Origin: a candidate division NC10 bacterium RIFCSPLOWO2_12_FULL_66_18
Lineage (GTDB): Bacteria > Methylomirabilota > Methylomirabilia > Methylomirabilales > 2-02-FULL-66-22
Length of the DNA: 57,379 nucleotides
Assembly: GCA_001771285.1 (NCBI GenBank)
Contig: METI01000073.1
Span: 1-57,379 of the forward strand
Direction of reading: 5' to 3'
Below, piece after piece: positions 3,226 to 39,026 of the stretch. Numbering within the stretch: the stretch's first letter is position 1; every line of letters begins with the position of its first letter. A program made the translations under genes and the position numbers. A model generated the notes under the pieces. That model was not told where the DNA came from. It saw only the letters and a list, made by a program, of their open reading frames with translations, and did no database searches.

Positions 3226-3981
3226 ATGCGGCTGCAGCGGTGCCATTGGCCCAGCACCGGAGGGCGCGGGGTGGAGCAGGTCCTTCAGCGATTCCTTGAG
3301 GAGATCCAGGGCCTGTACGGTGAGGACCTGCTGGCCATCTTCCTCTACGGAAGTGCGGCCGCGGGGGACCATGTTCCCGGACGCTCGGACCTCAACGTGG
3401 GGGTGGTGCTGCGGAAACTGACCCCGGCGCTCCTCCGGAAGGCTGGCGCGGATCTCCGGGCCTGGCACCGGCAAGGATTCGCCACGCCCGTGTTCTTTGA
3501 TCCGGAAAGCCTGCACGACTCCCTGGACGTGTTTCCCATCGAGTTCCTGGACATGCAGGAGCGGCACCGGATGCTGTGGGGACCGGACGTGCTCGCGGAC
3601 CTCTCCATCGCCCGCGGCAACCTGCGTCTGCAATGCGAGCAGGAACTGCGCGGCAAGTTGATGAAGCTCCGCCAGTCCTATGTCGAGTTCGCGCGCGCCC
3701 CGGGCGAGCTGGAGCACATCCTCATGGCGGTGGTCAGCAGCATGGTGGTCCTGGCCCGGACGCTCCTCCGACTTGGCGGCGGCGACACGGGTGGCGGGGC
3801 CGACGCCGTCTTTACACGGACCCAGGTGCGATTCGGCGCCTCCACCGCCAGCCTGCGGAAGGCCTGGCAGTTGAAGCGGGGAGAGATCCGCCTGACGGGG
3901 TCCAGCCTCGAGACGCTGTACCACGAGGTTCTGGAGGAGGTCCAGGGACTCGTTCGGGTCGTGGATGGCCTGGCTGCGTAG
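3226..3981 (+). CDS. Nucleotidyltransferase-domain protein (Pol-beta/MNT-like fold)
   Basis: 251 aa. LYGSAAAGDHVPGRSDLNVGVV fits the GSx(n)G...DxD NTase signature, followed by a helical C-terminal half. The 3' end overlaps the next gene by 17 nt. Confidence 0.6.
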   Translation: MRLQRCHWPSTGGRGVEQVLQRFLEEIQGLYGEDLLAIFLYGSAAAGDHVPGRSDLNVGVVLRKLTPALLRKAGADLRAWHRQGFATPVFFDPESLHDSLDVFPIEFLDMQERHRMLWGPDVLADLSIARGNLRLQCEQELRGKLMKLRQSYVEFARAPGELEHILMAVVSSMVVLARTLLRLGGGDTGGGADAVFTRTQVRFGASTASLRKAWQLKRGEIRLTGSSLETLYHEVLEEVQGLVRVVDGLAA

Positions 3982-4783
3982 CCCCTGGTTTTGCGCCTGG
4001 CTGATCCTCCTGGCCTTCCTGGGGCAGGTGGCCGCGGCTCCACCCCAGGTTCCGTCCCCGGTCGGTCCGGTGACCGACCTGGCGGGGATCCTGGATGCTG
4101 CCACCCGGCAGCGGCTGGAACAGATCATCCTGGAGGCCCGGGAGCGCACGACGGCAGAGATCGCCATCCTGACGGTCCCGTCCACCGCGCCGGAGACGAT
4201 CGAGGAGTACTCGGTCGCCGTTTTCGACCGCTGGAAAATCGGCAAGCGTGGGCAGGATAACGGGCTGTTGTTCCTGGTGGCGGTCCAGGACCGGCGGCTC
4301 CGCATCACCACCGGGTACGGCCTGGAGGGGATCCTGCCCGACGGGAAGATCGGAGAGATCCGCGACCGGGAGATCGTTCCCCGCTTCCGCGCCGGGCGGT
4401 ACGCCGAGGGGATCCTGCGTGGGACCGAGGCGCTGGCCAGTGTCATCCTGGGACAGGGTCAGGATGGCGCCCGCGGCAAGCAACCGGCCGCGCCTCCCGC
4501 CCGCCATCGGAACCGATTCCCGAGCAGGTCCACGGGAATCCTCCTGGGCATCTTCATTTTCCTGGTACTCTTCTCTGCCGGTCTCTCGTCGGTGGATCGC
4601 TCCGCCGCTGTCCCGGTCCGTGGCCGGCGGAGGCGGGGGCCATCCTGGTGGTTCGGCAGCGGGCCAGGCGGTTTTTCGAGCGGTGGGTTCAGCGGCTGGT
4701 CCGGGGGCGGATTCAGTTCCGGAAGTTTCGGTGGGTTTGGTGGCGGATCAACGGGCGGTGGTGGCGCGGGCGGGAGTTGGTGA
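3965..4783 (+). CDS. TPM-domain protein (YgcG/TLP18.3-like) with TM segment and Gly-rich tail
   Basis: Signal peptide, VTDLAGILD...AEIAILTV...GLLFLVAVQDRRLRITTGYGLEG, and a C-terminal GGFSSG/GGGAGGSW tail. Confidence 0.8.
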   Translation: MAWLRSPWFCAWLILLAFLGQVAAAPPQVPSPVGPVTDLAGILDAATRQRLEQIILEARERTTAEIAILTVPSTAPETIEEYSVAVFDRWKIGKRGQDNGLLFLVAVQDRRLRITTGYGLEGILPDGKIGEIRDREIVPRFRAGRYAEGILRGTEALASVILGQGQDGARGKQPAAPPARHRNRFPSRSTGILLGIFIFLVLFSAGLSSVDRSAAVPVRGRRRRGPSWWFGSGPGGFSSGGFSGWSGGGFSSGSFGGFGGGSTGGGGAGGSW

Positions 4784-4797
4784 GGCACGACGGCGCA

Positions 4798-4846
4798 GTT
4801 CGAAGTCCAAGGTTCGACGTTGAACATTGAACCTTGAACCTCGAAC
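4798..4846. repeat. Intergenic short-period repeat hairpin (GTTCGA/GGTTCAA units)
   Basis: gttcgaagtccaaggttcgacg ... ttgaaccttgaacctcgaac. The arms are imperfect reverse complements. Confidence 0.5.
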
Positions 4847-4870
4847 AGCGTGGGAAAGGAGCGAGAGGGC

Positions 4871-5434
4871 ATGAAGCCTGTGTGGATCATCCTCGGGGTG
4901 CTGGTCCTCATCGTGGTCGGCGTGGGTGGGACCGCCGTGTCGAAGTGGAACCAACTGGTCGCCATGGACACGGACATCAAGGCCAAGTGGGCCCAGGTGG
5001 AGAACCAGCTCCAGCGACGGGCCGATCTCATCCCGAACCTGGTCGAGGCGGTCAAGGGCTTTGCCGCGCAGGAGCGCACGATCCTGGAAGCCATCGCCAA
5101 CGCCCGGGCGAAGATGGCCGGGGCGGGGAGCGTGCAGGATCGGATCGCGGGCAGCAATGAGCTGTCCAGCGCCCTGGCCCGCCTGCTCGTCGTGGTGGAG
5201 AACTATCCCAACCTGAAGTCGGATGCGACGTTCATCCGTTTGATGGACGAACTCGCCGGCACCGAAAACCGGCTGGCCGTGGAGCGCAAGCGGTATAACG
5301 ATTCGGTGCAGGTCTACAACGTGGCCATCCGGCAGTTTCCCGGAAATCTGATTGCCTCGGTGTCGGGGTTCAAGGAGCATCCGTTCTTCGAGGTCCCGCC
5401 AGCAGCCCGACTGGTCCCCCAGGTCAAATTCTAG
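4871..5434 (+). CDS. lemA: LemA family protein
   Basis: N-terminal TM helix then WNQLV...VENQLQRRADLIPNLV...ERKRYNDSVQVYN, typical of LemA. ATG 4871 follows AAGGAG. The ORF track starts at GTG 4850. Confidence 0.85.
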   Translation: MKPVWIILGVLVLIVVGVGGTAVSKWNQLVAMDTDIKAKWAQVENQLQRRADLIPNLVEAVKGFAAQERTILEAIANARAKMAGAGSVQDRIAGSNELSSALARLLVVVENYPNLKSDATFIRLMDELAGTENRLAVERKRYNDSVQVYNVAIRQFPGNLIASVSGFKEHPFFEVPPAARLVPQVKF

Positions 5435-5436
5435 CA

Positions 5437-5517
5437 GGGGGGCAGAGGAGTGGAGGAGCAGAGGGGCAAAGGTGGAAACGTCACCCCCGCCCCCTTGCCC
5501 CCCGGCGCCTCTGCCCC
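5437..5517. repeat. GC-rich repeat hairpin after lemA (GCAGAGG units), possible terminator
   Basis: ggggcagaggagtggaggagcagaggggcaaagg ... ccccttgccccccggcgcctctgcccc, followed by gtatttt. Confidence 0.45.
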
Positions 5518-5526
5518 GTATTTTCC

Positions 5527-5555
5527 TTGACACTGTGGCGGGTTGGGGAATAAAT
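5527..5555 (+). promoter_or_regulatory. Putative promoter for tRNA-Val
   Basis: TTGACA (5527-5532), 17-nt spacer, ATAAAT (5550-5555). Confidence 0.35.
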
Positions 5556-5597
5556 TTTCCTCGCCTCCTGTATTGGTCAAGGCGGTGGGTGAGACGG

Positions 5598-5672
5598 AGG
5601 GACGTAGCTCAGGGGGAGAGCGCTTGCTTGACACGCAAGAGGTCGGCGGTTCAAGACCGCCCGTCCCTACCA
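5598..5672 (+). tRNA. tRNA-Val (GAC)
   Basis: Acceptor agggacg/cgtccct, D-stem gctc/gagc, anticodon stem cttgc/gcaag with loop ttGACac, T-arm ggcgg-ttcaaga-ccgcc, CCA encoded. Confidence 0.9.
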
Positions 5673-5692
5673 TCCATCTGGTTGAAGAGATG

Positions 5693-5719
5693 AGCCCCGG
5701 AGGACAGTCCTCCGGGGCT
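5693..5719 (+). terminator. Hairpin terminator after tRNA-Val
   Basis: agccccggagg-acagt-cctccggggct, followed by a T-containing tail tcgtgctt. Confidence 0.5.
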
Positions 5720-5801
5720 TCGTGCTTCGAGAGGAGGCCTTGGGAAACATCCGCTCGCGGGCATATTCGCGGGCACGCTCTGACTGCCTTTGGAGGAAGA
5801 G

Positions 5802-6818
5802 ATGAAAGCATTCATCTGCTGGTCTGGCGAGAGAAGTAGGCGGGCTGCAGAAGCCGTGCGTCAATGGCTTCCAAAAGTGATCCAGGCCGTGGAACCATTC
5901 ATGTCTGAATACATCGAGGAAGGGAATTCTTGGCCAGACGACGATTTGGATGCCAAACTCCGTGAGGCTCAATTCGGCGTGATCTGTTTAACCCGGGAGA
6001 ACCTCAAAGAGCCGTGGATCCAATTTGAAGCTGGCGCTCTGTACATGCGATTAGAGCAAGAGCGTGTCTGCCCCTATTTATTGGGCCTTCAGCCTTCAGA
6101 AATCCCTTGGCCTATAGCCAGATTCATGGCCACCAAGGCGGAGAAGGAGGACACCAGAAAACTCATGGACAAAATCAACAAGTCCTTGGGTGAGACAGCC
6201 CTCGATTCAGGGCGTCTCAGCGAGGCTGTTGATGTGTGGTGGCCAAGACTTGAAGACGCTCTGACTGCTGCCAGGAAATTAGAGGCGAAACCACCGCTTA
6301 AGGACTCTAAGAATGACATTCAAGAGGCGAGGCATACTGATCAAGGAAGTACGGCAGGCGAAGGGGCTGACCCAAGATGGGCTGGCCAAAAAGGCCGGGA
6401 TTTACCCGATCTATCTCGCGCAGATCGAGGGGAGCGCGAAGAACCCGCCGACGCGGACCCCAAGCCTCCCGATGCTCGAGCGCTTGGCGAAGGCCCTCAA
6501 GGTGAAGGTGGCGGAGCCGCTCAAATGACCGGACTCGGAAAGCTCCATCCACCACGAGAGGAGGGGCGGGCAATGAGCTTGAAGAAAATCGAACTCTACC
6601 GTGGGTTCAACATCTACACGGAGGAGATCCGGGGAGGCATCTGGGGAACCTCTGCGGTCGAGATTCCCTCAGGAGAAGCGGATATCATCCGTGCCCCTTC
6701 CCAGGGGCGTGTGCCGGGAGAGTATCAATCCAAGGAGGCCGCACTGGAGGCGGCAAGGGCGCATATTGATCGGATCCAGAAGAACAGAAGGAACAGAGCT
6801 AGCCAGGGAGCAAGATAG
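5802..6818 (+). CDS. TIR-domain protein (TIR part about 5802-6300; 3' end unresolved)
   Basis: MKAFICWSGERSRRAAEAVRQWLPKVIQ ... FGVICLTRENLKEPWIQFEAGAL matches the bacterial TIR-like family FISWSGxRS...FEAGAL. GGAGGAAGAG lies before ATG 5802. G+C is visibly lower than in the flanks. No in-frame stop occurs before 6818. Confidence 0.7.
   Translation: MKAFICWSGERSRRAAEAVRQWLPKVIQAVEPFMSEYIEEGNSWPDDDLDAKLREAQFGVICLTRENLKEPWIQFEAGALYMRLEQERVCPYLLGLQPSEIPWPIARFMATKAEKEDTRKLMDKINKSLGETALDSGRLSEAVDVWWPRLEDALTAARKLEAKPPLKDSKNDIQEARHTDQGSTAGEGADPRWAGQKGRDLPDLSRADRGEREEPADADPKPPDARALGEGPQGEGGGAAQMTGLGKLHPPREEGRAMSLKKIELYRGFNIYTEEIRGGIWGTSAVEIPSGEADIIRAPSQGRVPGEYQSKEAALEAARAHIDRIQKNRRNRASQGAR
6313..6528 (+). 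CDS. XRE-family HTH protein
   Basis: 71 aa. LTQDGLAKKAGIYPIYLAQIEGSAKNP...LERLAKALKVKV is a typical HTH_3. Third codon positions are strongly G/C in this frame. AAGGA lies upstream. Confidence 0.65.
   Translation: MTFKRRGILIKEVRQAKGLTQDGLAKKAGIYPIYLAQIEGSAKNPPTRTPSLPMLERLAKALKVKVAEPLK
6573..6818 (+). CDS. Small hypothetical protein (81 aa)
   Basis: ATG preceded by GAGGAGG. Non-repetitive translation MSLKKIELYRGFNIYTEE...SKEAALEAARAHIDRIQ. Same frame as the TIR ORF. Confidence 0.4.
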   Translation: MSLKKIELYRGFNIYTEEIRGGIWGTSAVEIPSGEADIIRAPSQGRVPGEYQSKEAALEAARAHIDRIQKNRRNRASQGAR

Positions 6819-6876
6819 TCAAGCGCCCCCGCACGGCTGGCACCGCCGGGGGCATGGCGCAAGACCGCTGGCTTTA

Positions 6877-7089
6877 GGGTGGACCTTCATTGCTCTGCAC
6901 CTGGAGGCGACGACGCATCCGAGGCTCGCGCAAGAGCGAGTCGGCCACAGCAACATCAAGCTCACCATGGACGTGTACGGGAAGCTGGCCGGGGACATGG
7001 CCCTGGCCGAGGATCAGGCGGTGCGGCTGAACGCCCTCACCGCGAAGGCGTTCCCCGCCCTGGCGCAATTCCCGTTAAACATCTGGTAA
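6877..7089 (+). pseudogene. C-terminal stump of a tyrosine recombinase (phage integrase family)
   Basis: TFIALHLEATTHPRLAQERVGHSNIKLTMDVYGKL corresponds to the HxxR-downstream / LGHSsi..T.d.Y catalytic-Tyr region. Only about 70 residues remain, with no N-terminal or core part. Confidence 0.65.
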
Positions 7090-7206
7090 ACACGAGCCTC
7101 CGAAACGGCCTGAAATGACCCGGATCAGCCTACAAGACGAAAGGCCGTAAGTGCTTGACAAACCGGAACATCCCGTAATATCCTGCACCACTATGCAAAG
7201 CCGTGG

Positions 7207-7256
7207 GGCGCTTGACACGCAAGAGGTCGGCGGTTTGAAACCGCCCGTGCCTACCA
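7207..7256 (+). repeat. Partial 3' copy of tRNA-Val (att-type direct repeat)
   Basis: The 25-nt core cttgacacgcaagaggtcggcggtt is identical to tRNA-Val. The rest, through CCA, has about 4 mismatches. No 5' half and no acceptor partner. Confidence 0.8.
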
Positions 7257-7291
7257 TCTCGTTTCTCGTGACGGCGTAGTGGATGGCTTGA

Positions 7292-7327
7292 GCATCACGA
7301 TGCAGGTGGTGTCGTGATGCTTTTTTC
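7292..7327 (+). terminator. Rho-independent terminator (probably the ancestral tRNA-Val terminator)
   Basis: gcatcacga-11 nt loop-tcgtgatgc followed by TTTTTTC. Lies 14 nt upstream of the thrS ATG. Confidence 0.6.
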
Positions 7328-7341
7328 TTCTGTGAATTGCG

Positions 7342-9396
7342 ATGGCTGACGCCGAACTCCTGCTGGCCGACGGCCGACGCGCTCGCGTGGCGGCCGGGCA
7401 GCCGATCCTCCCCACGCTCCAGTCGCTGGGGGAGCCGGCGGTGCGGTCGGCCGTGGCCGCCGCGTGGAACGGGCGTACTCTGGACTTCATGACACCCGTC
7501 CCGTCGAATGCGGCCCTCACACTGGTCCAGCCCGATTCGGTGGAGGGTCTGCAGGTGCTCCGCCACAGCACGGCGCACCTGATGGCGGCGGCGGTCCAGG
7601 TCCTCTTCCCGGAGGCCAAGTTCGCCATCGGGCCAGCCATCGAGGACGGCTTCTACTACGACATGGAGCTTCGACGGCCCCTGGCACCCGAGGATCTGCC
7701 GATCATCGAGGCCAAGATGCGGGAACTGGCGGCGCAACGGCTGCCGTATGTCCGCCGGGAGATGCCGCTTCCTGATGCGCTGGGATGGGCGCGCGAGAAC
7801 CGGCAGGATTACAAGGTGGAGATCCTGGAGACGATCCAGAAGTATGGGACCTCCCGGCCGGAGAGCCGCGAGCCGGGAACCGCGAGCCGCGAGCTGAGAG
7901 CCGAGGCCGGAGCGCCGAGCGCCGAGCGCCGAGAGGTTGAAGTTGAAGAACTCACGGGCGAGGTCGAGCCGGGGACGGCCACGGTGAGTTTTTACCAGAC
8001 CGGGACATTCGTGGACCTCTGTCGCGGACCCCACGTCCCGGATACCTCGTGGCTGACGGCCTTCCGCCTCACCCACATCGCCGGGGCCTACTGGCGGGGG
8101 GACGAACGGCGCCCGATGCTCCAGCGGATCTATGGGACCGCCTTCCACACCCAGGAGGCGCTGGAGCAGCACCTGTTCCGGCTGGAGGAGGCGCGCCGTC
8201 GTGACCACCGCCGCCTGGGGCGGGACCTGGACCTGTTCAGCGTGGCGGACGAGGTGGGCAGCGGGCTGATTCTGTGGCATCCCAAGGGTGGGATCATCCG
8301 CAAGATCATCGAGGACTTCTGGCGCGACGAACACCTGGCCAACGGCTACGATCTGGTGTACACCCCCCACGTGGGGCGGGCCAAGCTGTGGCAGAAGAGC
8401 GGGCACCTGGATTTCTACCAGGACCTCATGTATCCCCGGATGGAAGGGGAGGGCAATGACTATTACGTCAAGCCCATGAACTGCCCCTTCCACATCATGA
8501 TCTACCAGTCCAAAGTGCGGAGCTACCGGGACCTGCCCCTGCGATTCGCCGAGCTGGGGACGGTCTACCGGTTCGAGCGGGCCGGCGTGCTGCACGGCCT
8601 CCTGCGGGTCCGGGGATTCACCCAGGATGACGCGCACATCTTCTGCACCGCCGAGCAGATGGACGAGGAGATCACCCGGGCGGTGCGATTCAGCCTGTTC
8701 TTCCTCCGGACCTTCGGGTTCAAGGATTACGAGGTCTACGTGGCCACCCGCCCGGAGAAGTTCGTGGGCGAACCCGGGCAATGGGACGTGGCCACCGAGG
8801 CGCTGAAACGCGCGGCCGAGCGCGCCGGCCAGGTATACGAGCTGGATCCAGGTGGCGGCGCCTTCTACGGGCCCAAGATCGACATCAAGGTCAAGGATGC
8901 CCTCGGGCGTCCCTGGCAGTGCACCACGGTCCAGTTCGACTTCAATCTGCCCGAGCGGTTCGGCATCAGCTTCGTGGGCGAGGATAACCGCCAGCACCGG
9001 CCCTTCATGGTCCACCGGGCCCTCCTGGGCTCCATGGAGCGCTTCCTGGGCGTCCTGATCGAGCACTACGGGGGCGCCTTCCCGACCTGGCTGGCGCCGG
9101 TGCAGGTCCGGGTGCTGCCGGTAGCGGACCGCCATCATGAGTATGCGGCGAGCGTCGTCGCCCGCCTGCGGGCCGACGGCCTGCGGGGCGAGGTGGATAC
9201 CCGGAACGAGAAGATCGGCTTCAAGATCCGGGAGGCAGAGGTTCAGAAGATTCCGTACATCCCGGTGGTGGGAGACAAGGAAACGGCAGCGGGGACGGTG
9301 TCTGTCCGCCTGCGGGGCGGCCAGGATCGCGGCGTGATGCCCCTGGCGGATTTCGTCCACTCGCTGGCCACTGAGAGCAAGCCGCAGGCCGCCTGA
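7342..9396 (+). CDS. thrS: Threonine--tRNA ligase
   Basis: 684 aa. TGS domain, HSTAHL editing motif, DLCRGPHVP, class II core (FRNE-like, GFTQDDAHIF) and anticodon-binding C-terminus. Contains an in-frame low-complexity insert (see findings). Confidence 0.95.
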   Translation: MADAELLLADGRRARVAAGQPILPTLQSLGEPAVRSAVAAAWNGRTLDFMTPVPSNAALTLVQPDSVEGLQVLRHSTAHLMAAAVQVLFPEAKFAIGPAIEDGFYYDMELRRPLAPEDLPIIEAKMRELAAQRLPYVRREMPLPDALGWARENRQDYKVEILETIQKYGTSRPESREPGTASRELRAEAGAPSAERREVEVEELTGEVEPGTATVSFYQTGTFVDLCRGPHVPDTSWLTAFRLTHIAGAYWRGDERRPMLQRIYGTAFHTQEALEQHLFRLEEARRRDHRRLGRDLDLFSVADEVGSGLILWHPKGGIIRKIIEDFWRDEHLANGYDLVYTPHVGRAKLWQKSGHLDFYQDLMYPRMEGEGNDYYVKPMNCPFHIMIYQSKVRSYRDLPLRFAELGTVYRFERAGVLHGLLRVRGFTQDDAHIFCTAEQMDEEITRAVRFSLFFLRTFGFKDYEVYVATRPEKFVGEPGQWDVATEALKRAAERAGQVYELDPGGGAFYGPKIDIKVKDALGRPWQCTTVQFDFNLPERFGISFVGEDNRQHRPFMVHRALLGSMERFLGVLIEHYGGAFPTWLAPVQVRVLPVADRHHEYAASVVARLRADGLRGEVDTRNEKIGFKIREAEVQKIPYIPVVGDKETAAGTVSVRLRGGQDRGVMPLADFVHSLATESKPQAA

Positions 9397-9423
9397 TCCG
9401 GCGACCGCCGACCGCGGCTGGAG

Positions 9424-9942
9424 GTGAGGCCCATAAGTAAAGGCCTTCGCGTCAACGAGCGGATCCGCATCAAGGAAGTGCGGGTGATCAGTCCCGACGG
9501 GACCCAGCTTGGCGTCCTGCCCATCGAGCAGGCGCTCCAGACTGCCTACGGACTCCACATGGACCTGGTCGAGGTGGCGCCCGAGGCCCGGCCGCCCGTC
9601 TGCCGGATCATGGATTACGGCAAGTACCGGTACGAGCAGAGCAAGAAGGCGCGGGAGGCCAAGAAGAAGCAGACGATCATCGAACTCAAGGAGATCAAGC
9701 TCCGCCCGAAGACGGAGGAGCACGATTTCCAGTTCAAGGTGCGGCACGCCGACCGCTTCCTGAAGGAAGGGAACAAGGCCAAGATCACCATGATGTTCCG
9801 GGGACGCGAGGTGATCCGCATGGACCGGGGGAGGGCGCTGCTGAATCGGTTCGTGGAGGCCCTGAAGGACGTGGCCGTCGTGGAGCAACAGACCAAGGTC
9901 GAGGGCCGGAACATGACGATGATCCTGGCGCCGAAACACTAA
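9424..9942 (+). CDS. infC: Translation initiation factor IF-3
   Basis: VNERIRIKEVRVISPDGTQLGV...CRIMDYGKYRYEQSKK...IKLRPKTEEHDFQFK. The real start is probably the non-AUG ATA at 9433 (see findings). Confidence 0.9.
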   Translation: MRPISKGLRVNERIRIKEVRVISPDGTQLGVLPIEQALQTAYGLHMDLVEVAPEARPPVCRIMDYGKYRYEQSKKAREAKKKQTIIELKEIKLRPKTEEHDFQFKVRHADRFLKEGNKAKITMMFRGREVIRMDRGRALLNRFVEALKDVAVVEQQTKVEGRNMTMILAPKH

Positions 9943-15344: not shown

Positions 15345-15565
15345 GAGATCAGGGATACCGAGAACCCCTACCGTGCGCGTGATGCGGTAACTTTTTTTGA
15401 GCCAACACCCTCAGAACGGGGATCCCTCCGAGAACGTGGTGAGCAGGCCTGTCCGCCTCGGCGGAAGGGAAGCCTAAAGCGTTTGCGGGACCCCCACCTG
15501 GTTATCCAGGTTCAAACGAGGACCAGCACACGGCACAATGGTAGGGGTTGTTTCTTCTCTCGGCC
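15345..15565 (+). ncRNA. ssrS: 6S RNA (ends approximate)
   Basis: Closing stem aacccctacc (15363-15372) pairs with ggtaggggtt (15540-15549). Internal blocks ggtgagcaGGC..gtccg..gaagccuaaagcg..caccug..ccagguucaaa align by eye to the E. coli 6S blocks GGUGAGCAUGC / GUCCG / GAAGCCUUAAAA / CACCUUG / CAAGGGUUCAAG. Sits downstream of zapA as in E. coli. Confidence 0.65.
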
Positions 15566-28341: not shown

Positions 28342-29917
<1,576 letters not shown>

Positions 29918-30150
29918 AGCTGACCCCCCCGCCGAAAGGCGGGGTGCGATGCTTCGTGGTCGATTTACCCCAAGCTGGTAGCAATGATATCCCATGCACG
30001 CGCGCATCTGTGCTGATGCGCCGGCACGAGCGGGGAGGGACGCGATCCCTCCCCGATTTGTGTCGGGGGAGACATCCTGGCCGTGTGCGCAACCGGGCGG
30101 GCCCCTTGGGGCTCGAGCCGGGCTGGTCGGACATGCGGCCGGCCGCGGAT

Positions 30151-30227
30151 GGGCCTTTAGCTCAGCCGGTCAGAGCGCACGCTTGATAAGCGTGAGGTCC
30201 CTGGTTCGATCCCAGGAAGGCCCACCA
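30151..30227 (+). tRNA. tRNA-Ile (GAT)
   Basis: Acceptor gggcctt/aaggccc, anticodon stem cacgc/gcgtg with loop ttGATaa, CCA encoded. Located in the ITS. Confidence 0.9.
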
Positions 30228-30231
30228 ACGA

Positions 30232-30300
30232 ATTGAAGATTTGCGATTGACGATTTTCGATTTTCAATCGGCAATCGAAAATCCGCAATCGACAATTCGC
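30232..30300. repeat. AT-rich GATTG/CAATC-type hairpin between tRNA-Ile and tRNA-Ala
   Basis: gaagatttgcgattgacgattttcgatt / ttcaatcggcaatcgaaaatccgcaatcgacaattc. Same motif family as the tRNA-array spacers. Confidence 0.6.
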
Positions 30301-30304
30301 TCGT

Positions 30305-30380
30305 GGGGATGTAGCTCAGACGGGAGAGCACCTGCTTTGCACGCAGGGGGTCAGCGGTTCGATTCCGCTCATCTCCACCA
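30305..30380 (+). tRNA. tRNA-Ala (TGC)
   Basis: Acceptor ggggatg/catctcc with G3:U70, anticodon loop ttTGCac, CCA encoded. Confidence 0.9.
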
Positions 30381-30495
30381 GCACAGCGTCCAGATGCAAT
30401 GCGCGGGAGCCTTTGTCTCCGCCGTGGGCGGGGATCAGCTCTTTGACAACTGAATAGCGATCGGGTATCCACTCTGTTTCACCGAAGCAAAGTGG

Positions 30496-33509
<3,014 letters not shown>

Positions 33510-33580
33510 CCATATTTCTTTATCAGTATCATACGTCCGGGGAGCAGGGTGGATACCTCGATCGCTATTCTTCATCGCCC

Positions 33581-33910
33581 ATGCGACGCGCCTTCGTCCT
33601 GATCGGCCTCGGTGCGGCAGCGATTCTGGCCGGGGTGGCGTGGCTCGCCGCGGCGCAGTTCGGAGGGGGGGAGAAGACGCCTCTCGCGCCGATGCGCGCG
33701 GAAGCGCCCACGCCGATAAAGGTGGATCTCAACCAGGCGGGGGTGGAGGAACTGGGTCGCCTTCCCGGCATCACTCCGTCGCTCGCCGAGCGCATCGCCA
33801 GGAACCGACCGTATCGGAAGCTCGACGATCTCGTTACGCGGAAGGTTTTGGGGAAGAAACAGTTCGCACGGATCCGGGAGTTGGTGCTGGTAAACCGGGG
33901 CTCCCAGTGA
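33581..33910 (+). CDS. ComEA-like helix-hairpin-helix DNA-binding protein, inside the 23S-5S spacer
   Basis: 109 aa. TM/signal segment then VDLNQAGVEELGRLPGITPSLAERIARNRPYRKLDDLVTRKVLGKKQFARIRELV, the ComEA HhH pattern. Third positions are G/C-rich. The ORF-track start at 33497 overlaps the 23S. Confidence 0.7.
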   Translation: MRRAFVLIGLGAAAILAGVAWLAAAQFGGGEKTPLAPMRAEAPTPIKVDLNQAGVEELGRLPGITPSLAERIARNRPYRKLDDLVTRKVLGKKQFARIRELVLVNRGSQ

Positions 33911-33940
33911 GTCGTCGCGCCCAAGGGCATCTGTTCGATT

Positions 33941-34057
<117 letters not shown>

Positions 34058-37860: not shown

Positions 37861-37937
37861 CGGGGCGTGGCGCAGCCTGGTAGCGCACCTGCTTTGGGAG
37901 CAGGGGGCCGGAGGTTCAAATCCTCTCGCCCCGACCA
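37861..37937 (+). tRNA. tRNA-Pro (TGG)
   Basis: Acceptor cggggcg/cgccccg, anticodon stem cctgc/gcagg with loop ttTGGga, CCA encoded. Confidence 0.9.
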
Positions 37938-38007
37938 GTCGGGGAACGTATTGCAGATTGCAGATTTGACAATCTCCGATCTGCCATCTGAAATCTCAAA
38001 TGGCATT

Positions 38008-38085
38008 GCGCCTGTAGCTCAGCCCGGATAGAGCAACGGCCTCCGGAGCCGTGTGTCGGGTGTTCAAATCACCCCAGGCGCGCCA
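38008..38085 (+). tRNA. tRNA-Arg (CCG)
   Basis: Acceptor gcgcctg/caggcgc, anticodon stem acggc/gccgt with loop ctCCGga, CCA encoded. Confidence 0.9.
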
Positions 38086-38189
38086 GACGATTTGTGATTG
38101 ATGATTTGCGATTGACGATTTGACTGAGGCTGTGATGCTAGGCGGTCCGGGAAATCGAAAATCCTCAATCACCAATCGCAAATGGACAT

Positions 38190-38267
38190 GGTGAGCGTAG
38201 CTCAAATGGTCAGAGCACTGGACTGTGGCTCCAGGGGTTGAGGGTTCGAGTCCCTCCGTTCACCCCA
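38190..38267 (+). tRNA. tRNA-His (GTG)
   Basis: Encoded G-1 opposite discriminator C, anticodon stem ctgga/tccag with loop ctGTGgc, CCA encoded. Confidence 0.9.
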
Positions 38268-38380
38268 CGATGGGGGGTTTTCGATTGGCGATTTGCGATT
38301 GCCGATTGCACAAAGAGTCGAAGCCGGGGCGATTTGGACAAATCGAAAATCGGCAATCCTAAATTGGCAATGAGAAGGGG

Positions 38381-38457
38381 GCGCCCGTAGCTCAGTTGGA
38401 TAGAGCGGCTGGCTTCGAACCAGCAGGTCGGGAGTTCAATCCTCTCCGGGCGCGCCA
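38381..38457 (+). tRNA. tRNA-Arg (TCG)
   Basis: Acceptor gcgcccg/cgggcgc, anticodon stem gctgg/ccagc with loop ctTCGaa, CCA encoded. Confidence 0.9.
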
Positions 38458-38577
38458 CGGACGGCGGTTGGGGATTTTCGATTGGTGATTTCCGATTGGC
38501 GATTGCCTCGGAGCGTGTGCCCTTGCGGCCCGGGAAAATCGAAAATCGCCAATCCTCAATCGACGATGGGTTGAGGG

Positions 38578-38653
38578 GCGCCTGTAGCTCAGTGGAGAGA
38601 GCAACTGCCTTCTAAGCAGTGGGCCGGGCGTTCGAGTCGCCCCAGGCGCACCA
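38578..38653 (+). tRNA. tRNA-Arg (TCT)
   Basis: Acceptor gcgcctg/caggcgc, anticodon stem actgc/gcagt with loop ctTCTaa, CCA encoded. Confidence 0.9.
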
Positions 38654-38762
38654 CGTCATTTTCGATTGGTGATTTGGGATTGTCGATTGGGCCGATTCAG
38701 AAGTTTCCGGGCGGCGGAAAATCGAAAATCATCAATCCTAAATCGTAAATTGGGAAAGGGAT

Positions 38763-38838
<76 letters not shown>

Positions 38839-38942
38839 CACTCACAAGTGGATTTCCGATTGTGGATTGGTGAATGCCGATTGAACTGCAATGCCGAGCG
38901 GTGAAATCGAAAATCCTCAATCGGCAATCGACGATCACCCTG

Positions 38943-39026
38943 GCGAGAGTGGCGGAATGGCAGACGCGTCCCGTTTAGGGCGGGATGGGGCGACCCGTGG
39001 GGGTTCAACTCCCCCCTCTCGCACCA
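38943..39026 (+). tRNA. tRNA-Leu (TAG)
   Basis: Acceptor gcgagag/ctctcgc, anticodon stem tcccg/cggga with loop ttTAGgg, long variable arm, CCA encoded. Confidence 0.9.

Follow-up and report, generated by a model that had tools for sequence, protein, structure and literature searches.

Here, we identify positions 5675-7209 of a 57,379-nt stretch of DNA from a candidate division NC10 bacterium (contig METI01000073.1; the whole stretch is referred to as the window) as what is very probably the remnant, 1.5 kb in length, of a tRNA-Val(GAC)-specific integrative element in the chromosome of a Candidatus Methylomirabilota (NC10) bacterium. Between the intact tRNA gene and a displaced repeat of its 3' half lie a hairpin, a TIR-domain open reading frame (ORF), a gene for an XRE-family helix-turn-helix (HTH) protein, an 81-amino acid ORF (orf81) and the end of a tyrosine integrase gene (~75 codons), and this islet is flanked by the genes TPM, LemA and thrS. 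An earlier, sequence-only reading of this DNA had proposed that the TIR, HTH and 81-amino acid proteins constitute a minimal or novel module, possibly in abortive infection or addiction, that was retained after the mobile element decayed. Our analysis indicates an ordinary tRNA islet in decay that is located at a cargo-swapping hotspot and carries a broken TIR gene from an already modeled family; a three-gene TIR + HTH + 81-amino acid ORF defence system is not supported. The features on which this reading is based are as follows, with loci used for comparison designated by L numbers.

5598-5672, + strand: functional tRNA-Val(GAC) with a clean cloverleaf (ARAGORN; Rfam tRNA, 67.3 bits)
5601 and 5666: positions 4 and 69 of this tRNA-Val
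5626-5674, + strand: attL copy of a 49-nt direct repeat (repeat comparison)
5675-5753, + strand: constant, element-derived segment after the tRNA, with a strong GC hairpin (conservation across loci)
5802-6312, + strand: 3'-truncated TIR-domain gene, codons 1-170, with ribosome-binding site (RBS) and ATG intact and no stop codon of its own (PADLOC TIR-TM; AlphaFold2 (AF2)/Foldseek; family alignment)
6310-6313, + strand: deletion scars, i.e., TIR codon 170 joined to DNA just upstream of the HTH gene and a 27-nt deletion relative to L002 and L093 (three-way alignment of the window, L002 and L001; ORFs of L093)
6313-6528, + strand: XRE-family HTH gene, 71 amino acids, assigned to the integration/regulation module of the element (Pfam HTH_3, 6e-10)
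6573-6818, + strand: orf81, a conserved 81-amino acid protein (76 homologues)
6856-7089, + strand: C-terminal tyrosine integrase remnant, ~residues 308-400, reading toward attR (tblastn with the L096 integrase; PHROG_1 integrase, 5.7e-6)
7090-7209, + strand: element P arm adjoining attR (conserved in L003, L097, L099, L110, L111 and L113)
7210-7258, + strand: attR, the 3' half that originally belonged to the host tRNA-Val and is now displaced (multiple alignment; repeat comparison)
7290-7332, + strand: original host tRNA-Val terminator, a 14-bp hairpin and T-run just upstream of thrS (kept in L010-L013)
7342-9396: thrS

Several observations support the idea that the segment was inserted into the tRNA gene. 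First, the intact tRNA-Val(GAC) called in the sequence-only reading is borne out by both ARAGORN and Rfam, and 5626-5674 and 7210-7258 form a 49-nt direct repeat with 92% identity and 4 mismatches. The imperfect tRNA copy previously placed at 7207-7256, with a 25-nt core, is real, its coordinates being off by a few bases; the exact core (GCTTGACACGCAAGAGGTCGGCGGTT) comprises 26 nt, spans the anticodon loop to the T-stem, is found twice in the window and in none of 100 shuffles, and its copy at 5626-5651 is likely the crossover region. Second, a scan of one genome per species with the N-terminal 260 residues of ThrS as a query identified metagenome-assembled genomes of Candidatus Methylomirabilota/NC10 as the closest relatives (78, 74, 68, 64 and 52% identity), and in seven Methylomirabilota genomes (L010-L016), tRNA-Val(GAC) precedes thrS by ~85 nt, without a second copy. 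Third, L011 is collinear with 3902-5674 (TPM, LemA and tRNA-Val) and with 7210-9500 (thrS), with nothing intervening. Because L010-L016 have the empty site and L011 aligns without the segment, 5675-7209 is a true insertion with a 49-nt target duplication. The empty tRNA-Val-thrS junction that the sequence-only reading had led one to look for in relatives is, therefore, present and lacks a partial copy, and its proposal of a tyrosine-recombinase element integrated in the 3' half of the tRNA gene holds, based on these empty sites and on the intact integrase layout in L096 described below.

The acceptor stem of the tRNA also reveals which of the two 3' halves belonged to the host. The 4:69 pair is G4:C69 in every islet-bearing tRNA-Val gene (window, L095, L097, L098, L105-L108, L110, L112-L114 and L128) and C4:G69 in all empty-site tRNAs of the same acceptor-stem type (L010, L014-L016 and L018), while the displaced 3' halves mostly retain G69. 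In the window, the acceptor strand of the working tRNA-Val reads CGTCCCT; attR retains the host-type CGTGCCT strand, is contiguous with the host terminator and has a T-loop that has decayed to TTTGAAA. The split between G4:C69 and C4:G69, together with the G69 of the displaced copies, fixes the direction of integration, and the tRNA 3' half from 5626 is element-derived. In the simplest reading, the element would have contributed a 3' half with C69 and the 5' strand of the host would have compensated by a C4 to G change, which makes the locus a clean, datable case of tRNA repair after integration.

The sequence-only reading had also assigned a hairpin terminator to each tRNA copy. This assignment stands for the downstream copy, where the hairpin at 7290-7322 is followed by a T-run, precedes thrS and is conserved in the empty-site genomes. 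It does not stand for the upstream copy: the hairpin at ~5690-5723 (−36.3 kcal/mol, z −4.45) has no T-run and is, therefore, a hairpin and not a textbook intrinsic terminator. The segment that contains it, 5675-5753, is kept after tRNA-Val in L107, L109, L110-L113, L115, L116, L128 and others. Among RNA elements, Rfam detected solely the tRNA in the islet. G+C content is 50-53% at 5800-6300, 58-61% at 6300-6800 (HTH gene and orf81) and 62-72% in the flanks; the previously noted low G+C content of the cargo (~50% versus the mid-60s) is, thus, correct for the TIR part and not for the HTH gene and orf81.

The integrase gene is largely gone. By tblastn, 6856-7071 corresponds to residues 308-379 of the 400-amino acid tyrosine integrase of L096 with 64% identity; the whole remnant (6856-7089) includes the catalytic-Tyr region (HSNIKLTMDVYGKL), and ~308 of the ~400 codons (~77%) are missing. 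This agrees with the earlier suggestion of an immobilised element in which a C-terminal end of ~70 codons (6877-7089) survives: ~75 codons are confirmed and the rest is absent from the window. Because there is no other integrase piece and no intact integrase anywhere in the 57-kb window, we consider the locus a relic rather than an element, and we infer that it is no longer mobile.

Less decayed loci show how such elements are arranged. In L096, a full 400-amino acid integrase with Pfam Phage_integrase and SAM-like domains reads into a displaced tRNA-Val 3' half that is identical to the present-day tRNA, and this half is followed by a 139-amino acid ORF, orf81, an older displaced half and thrS. 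L109 has the same two integration layers with a partial integrase. L163 is an intact element with an HTH homologue (83% identity) and contains the HTH gene, two small ORFs, two integrases, a TTGACA motif and a partial tRNA 3' end. Based on the layouts of L096, L109 and L163, we read the order HTH - small ORF - int - attR as the right-end integration module of the element pool. Scans of IMG/VR with orf81 and with the L096 integrase gave no match and, therefore, the ancestral element is not a recognisable phage. In the P arm of the window, a sigma-70-like TTGACA-18-TATCCT motif at 7155-7184 is oriented toward the displaced tRNA half and thrS, and L163, an unrelated element, has a similar motif (GTGCTTGACAA) after its integrase gene; the motif at 7155-7184 may serve as a promoter directed outward or as an arm site for the integrase.

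The identification of the HTH protein as an XRE-family protein in the sequence-only reading is supported by the match to Pfam HTH_3. The gene has 57 close homologues and a ratio of nonsynonymous to synonymous substitution rates (dN/dS) of 0.14 versus L093, and many loci retain its 3' end upstream of orf81. Its matches to the PADLOC models HTH_VI, capH and Control_protein were dismissed, as they concern XRE-type HTH models only and do not constitute evidence for a system; HTH_VI is the Cro/C1-type HTH protein of type VI retrons (PMC7736814). No reverse transcriptase, cyclase or restriction-modification gene was found among the islet ORFs.

The TIR fragment is predicted to have a true TIR fold. 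Its AF2 model has a predicted local distance difference test (pLDDT) score of 87.5, and the best Foldseek matches in the PDB are the TIR domains of SPARTA TIR-APAZ, MAL/TIRAP, AbTir, TIR-STING and SARM1. Searches by sequence against PDB chains, whether based on one sequence or on a profile of 37 sequences, gave no match, and the structure-based search alone succeeded. E76 in the W72-x3-E76 motif is invariant across the 37-sequence family alignment and, by its motif, is the putative equivalent of the catalytic Glu of TIR NADases. The earlier description of a TIR-like protein with a conserved Glu context, thus, holds with regard to fold and Glu; however, the Pfam TIR_2 score of 25.2 bits is below the 28-bit cut-off, and the gene is truncated. 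The gene matches the existing PADLOC model PDLC03016 ("TIR-TM") at 1.8e-57, but only at the N-terminal profile positions 1-171 of 293.

The truncation is evident from a comparison with the family. Nearly all of its >400 members have 230-300 amino acids, the family ORFs in 80 viral loci have 246-395, and relatives match the TIR-TM profile to positions ~200-278. After residue ~172, family members continue with a near-invariant R..LEEIL.LVR helix and end in a C-terminal domain of variable type, an XRE HTH domain in some of them. In the window, homology ends at codon 170; the protein departs from the family exactly after KDSK at nt 6312, and the R..LEEIL.LVR motif is absent from every frame downstream of the TIR part. 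L001 is 96.7% identical to 5678-6312 and then runs on with the conserved helix. L002 and L093 share the breakpoint of the window and have 27 extra nt that supply a stop codon (the protein ending in ..KDSKRSLTKRRA), with the ATG of the HTH gene 2 nt after this stop. In the window, there is no stop before 6818, and the TIR frame forms a single 338-amino acid ORF (5802-6818) that was overlooked in the sequence-only reading; this ORF overruns the HTH gene out of frame and has its frame and stop in common with orf81. Thus, the TIR gene of the window is a truncated allele that further lost its stop codon. Between the window and L001, the TIR part differs by 8 nonsynonymous and 0 synonymous changes (P ~0.14 under neutrality and ~0.001 if omega is 0.2). 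We infer that the TIR fragment is probably a nonfunctional, or at best unregulated, relic.

Two further ideas about the TIR gene were rejected. One held that TIR and HTH are a single gene split by a frameshift or expressed by programmed frameshifting; the junction is a homology breakpoint, the linker helix is missing, and the HTH protein is only 28% identical to the HTH domains found in fusions. The HTH gene is in the +1 frame relative to TIR, and no obvious slippery site was found by eye. The other held that the truncated allele has spread by selection, as the near-identity of the L093 TIR gene might suggest; however, the window and L093 show mosaic identity across the whole region, with 79-100% per 100 nt.

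The family itself deserves mention. Stand-alone TIR genes of the PADLOC TIR-TM type are common on viral contigs (121 relatives in IMG/VR; loci L165-L244), and their C-terminal domains vary and include XRE HTH, HTH_8, Sigma70_r4 and RNAP alpha-CTD domains. Despite the label, the TIR-TM members inspected by eye, with no predictor, have no evident transmembrane stretch. No neighbour is conserved among the TIR-family loci, the commonest cluster, terminase-like by eye, being present in 11 of the 80 viral loci. A literature search found no paper on the TIR-TM family, the matches being to plant R genes or unrelated, and no defence system that uses PDLC03016. In L001, where orf81 is absent and a 118-amino acid ORF is present instead, the TIR gene is followed by a LAGLIDADG homing-endonuclease-like ORF (860-1423; PHROG_4645, 1.2e-22; Pfam LAGLIDADG_3) that overlaps its 3' end, and this TIR copy may also be disrupted downstream of the conserved helix.

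If the three genes functioned together, they would be expected to recur together. Among 73 orf81 loci from a metagenome scan and context look-ups, the TIR gene or a full HTH gene accompanies orf81 only in L093, which is the same islet with the same breakpoint in a near-identical strain (the 3' half of its thrS is 97-100% identical to that of the window); L002 is a short fragment of a near-identical islet and reaches only TIR and HTH. Conversely, neither orf81 nor a window-type HTH gene was found in any of 88 TIR-family loci (80 viral contigs plus L001, L090, L091 and L158-L162). The sequence-only reading had itself made recurrence elsewhere the test of its minimal or novel module, and with no independent co-occurrence (1/73 and 0/88) and a TIR gene that is truncated and without a stop, the three-gene module fails this test.

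What recurs instead is the site. In ~25 of the 73 orf81 loci, orf81 is located between tRNA-Val and a displaced copy upstream of thrS. Minimal islets (L110, L113, L111, L112, L115 and L128) contain nothing but the ~80-nt segment that follows the tRNA, orf81 and the P arm. Elsewhere, the cargo between tRNA-Val and orf81 is HigB/HigA; Phd/ParE with DUF2158 and a second orf81; GIY-YIG with an SDH-type protease, Phd/ParE and HigBA; DUF3800; or ORFs without a recognisable family. The TIR gene and, in L001, a LAGLIDADG endonuclease gene also count among the changing cargo of this site. From this variability, we conclude that the tRNA-Val locus is an integration/recombination hotspot at which strains swap small toxin-antitoxin and defence-type cargo. 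In L095, two orf81 copies (1043-1288 and 2201-2440) flank the Phd/ParE pair inside one tRNA-Val islet, consistent with layered integrations or a duplication.

The small ORF noted in the sequence-only reading is a real conserved gene: the 76 homologues of orf81 have 60-98% identity, and dN/dS is 0.14-0.43. Its AF2 model has four strands followed by one long helix (pLDDT 73.7), Foldseek against the PDB gave nothing at E < 1, and there was no match in Pfam, PHROGs, PADLOC or NCBIfam. The family is narrow, with 33 representatives at E ≤ 1e-3 among 1.84 billion proteins in a profile search, and its distant members are without an informative domain except for one PilZ fusion and one weak DUF6566 match. 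More distant homologues occupy unrelated sites: in L005, the gene is flanked by tex and an RRM gene, and in L008, it follows HU-MerR close to tRNA-Pro. Because empty-site genomes have no orf81 at tRNA-Val/thrS, orf81 looks element-derived. In this lineage, it is the constant resident of the islet, under purifying selection, and is clearly the one islet part preserved by selection across all loci. The HTH gene and especially orf81 seem to be still maintained by selection, and orf81 is a better candidate than the HTH gene for keeping the islet in place. A second hotspot was noted in a comparison of L158/L159 with L008/L009, where a conserved MiaB - SPOR - HU - MerR block is followed either by a full-length TIR-family gene and then element genes (AAA_25) or by an orf81 homologue and a 124-amino acid ORF before tRNA-Pro.

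Could the truncated TIR protein and the XRE HTH protein, with or without orf81, nevertheless form a working minimal module, i.e., a split TIR-HTH pair in defence, abortive infection or addiction? We consider this very improbable, although several findings favor it, most of which also weigh against our reading of the islet as a relic. The TIR fragment keeps its RBS, start codon, entire TIR fold and the invariant Glu of the W-x3-E motif; the stop-bearing truncated allele is abundant in metagenomes (P0005 cluster, 38 member sequences) and, with its stop 2 nt from the HTH ATG, has an operon-like look; the HTH gene is under purifying selection; and because natural TIR-HTH fusions occur among the full-length family members (P0086, P0117 and P0118), a functional link between the two would, by analogy, not be absurd. 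With regard to the relic reading, the 8:0 ratio is a small sample that fits neutrality and is also compatible with positive selection, and the 27-nt deletion could be an assembly error. Also, the thrS gene of L010 (empty site) is about as close to that of the window (85% nucleotide identity) as is that of L003 (islet-bearing; 82%), which would fit an ancient integration with later precise loss as well as recombinational spread. However, the TIR/HTH junction is located exactly where nucleotide homology to the L001 allele, which has the motif, comes to an end and is, therefore, a rearrangement breakpoint and not a selected domain boundary. The near-invariant family motif is lost, and G+C content changes across the junction. 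The window HTH protein is only generically similar to the fused HTH domains of the family (28% identity), while its 83% homologue P0199 is part of an integrase module. Finally, the absence of synonymous differences from L001, the deleted stop that lets the TIR frame overrun both downstream genes, and the lack of independent co-occurrence in 73 + 88 loci all argue against a selected module. It is also a long shot that orf81 would be a domesticated element gene whose benefit to the host has fixed the decayed islet between tRNA-Val and thrS across a Methylomirabilota clade or that the truncated TIR protein and the element HTH protein would act as an unregulated or HTH-controlled NADase module.

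Two other explanations focus on orf81. In one, the HTH gene and orf81 are an element-borne two-gene unit, either regulator/effector or antitoxin/toxin, that selection now maintains as the function of the islet. The genes are neighbours on one strand with 45 nt between them, a strong RBS precedes orf81, purifying selection acts on both, and the HTH 3' remnant upstream of orf81 in most islets indicates that the pair is ancestral. We regard this explanation as improbable: a full HTH gene accompanies orf81 in only 1 of 50 loci with enough upstream sequence, orf81 stands alone in minimal islets and in the distant contexts of L005 and L008, a toxin would not outlive loss of its antitoxin, and orf81 matches no known toxin family or fold. 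A type II toxin-antitoxin assignment of XRE and orf81 was rejected on the same count of informative loci and the same lack of a toxin-family match. In the other explanation, orf81 served the lost integrase as its excisionase (recombination-directionality factor), as its small size, basic C-terminus (KNRRNRASQ), same-strand position immediately upstream of int in the order HTH - orf81 - int - attR, and the order orf81, 205-amino acid ORF, integrase N-terminus in L107 would suggest. This is quite improbable, as purifying selection on orf81 persists in dozens of integrase-less loci, orf81 occurs without a nearby integrase, e.g., in L005, and its predicted fold matches no solved structure, including winged-helix Xis proteins.

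Altogether, we favor a model in which the islet is a deletion derivative of an integrative element. We suggest that an element with TIR cargo at its left end and the HTH - orf81 - int module at its right end integrated at tRNA-Val, within the 26-nt core. The 3' half of the element now completes tRNA-Val, and the original 3' half of the host and its terminator have been displaced 1.58 kb downstream, where they still abut thrS. Subsequently, deletions would have taken most of int and of the element interior, thereby joining TIR codon 170 to DNA just upstream of the HTH gene, and in the genome of the window, the further 27-nt deletion removed the stop of the truncated TIR gene to generate the 338-amino acid run-on frame. 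L001, L003 and L107 appear to be different deletion derivatives, in each of which no more than the final 40-100 nt of the HTH gene are left. Because identity between the window and L093 is mosaic, homologous recombination among strains probably shuffles the pieces, and cargo turnover would seemingly occur by deletion and homologous recombination.

The main value of these findings is negative: the locus is no candidate for a new TIR defence system, its TIR gene being a broken copy of a family that is already in the model library. Nevertheless, tRNA-Val/thrS is a cargo-swapping hotspot in the poorly studied NC10/Methylomirabilota and, as such, a useful site for finding real accessory genes. The analysis also flags two uncharacterised families, i.e., the stand-alone, prophage-borne TIR proteins with variable C-terminal domains, some of them HTH domains, and the orf81 family.

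Other features of the window were noted. A HigB (Gp49, 4.7e-26)/HigA (HTH_3) pair at 501-1123 on the − strand is located in a ~2-kb gap between tRNA-Cys (90-165) and tRNA-Leu (2219-2305). Because the Gly, Cys, Leu and Val tRNA genes of the relative L016 are packed within 600 bp, the gap may represent another islet adjacent to a tRNA gene. A search for a partial tRNA repeat gave no clear candidate. The window also contains a 6S RNA gene (15362-15551), a complete rRNA operon whose spacer contains tRNA-Ile and tRNA-Ala (28342-34057) and a row of seven tRNA genes (Pro, Arg, His, Arg, Arg, Lys and Leu; 37861-39026). Residues ~165-205 of ThrS (7830-7960) form a low-complexity Glu/Arg-rich insertion (SRPESREPGTASRELRAEAGAPSAERREVEVEE) that varies in length by strain; when the window is aligned with L093, the 7800 bin and the 7900 bin both contain 21-nt gaps.

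How does the islet compare with known systems? In tRNA-targeting integrative elements, a tyrosine integrase crosses over in the region from the anticodon loop to the 3' end of a tRNA gene and rebuilds the gene. The islet resembles these elements in having an intact tRNA, a direct repeat of the tRNA 3' half, an integrase at the att site, an empty site in relatives, a deviating G+C content and cargo of the toxin-antitoxin/defence type. It differs from them in its size of only 1.5 kb, in the loss of ~77% of the integrase and of the interior, which leaves it immobile, and in the preserved compensatory 4:69 change in the acceptor stem. The islet TIR protein is similar to PADLOC TIR-TM proteins, which are stand-alone TIR proteins of ~250-300 amino acids that are common on prophages and islands, in its N-terminal 170 residues, fold and W-x3-E motif; by contrast, profile positions 172-293, with the R..LEEIL.LVR helix and the variable C-terminal domain, and a stop of its own are missing. 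As in Thoeris, there is a small bacterial TIR protein in a mobile/defence context; however, PADLOC found no ThsA match among the four islet ORFs, and the ThsB model matched at E = 0.064 over 37 residues. The concept of defence islets with swappable cargo at integration hotspots comes from work on P4-like elements and prophage hotspots. The islet is very small and most of its copies are without an active integrase, but it shares with these hotspots the constant flanks, i.e., tRNA-Val on one side and orf81, attR and thrS on the other, with strain-variable cargo in between.

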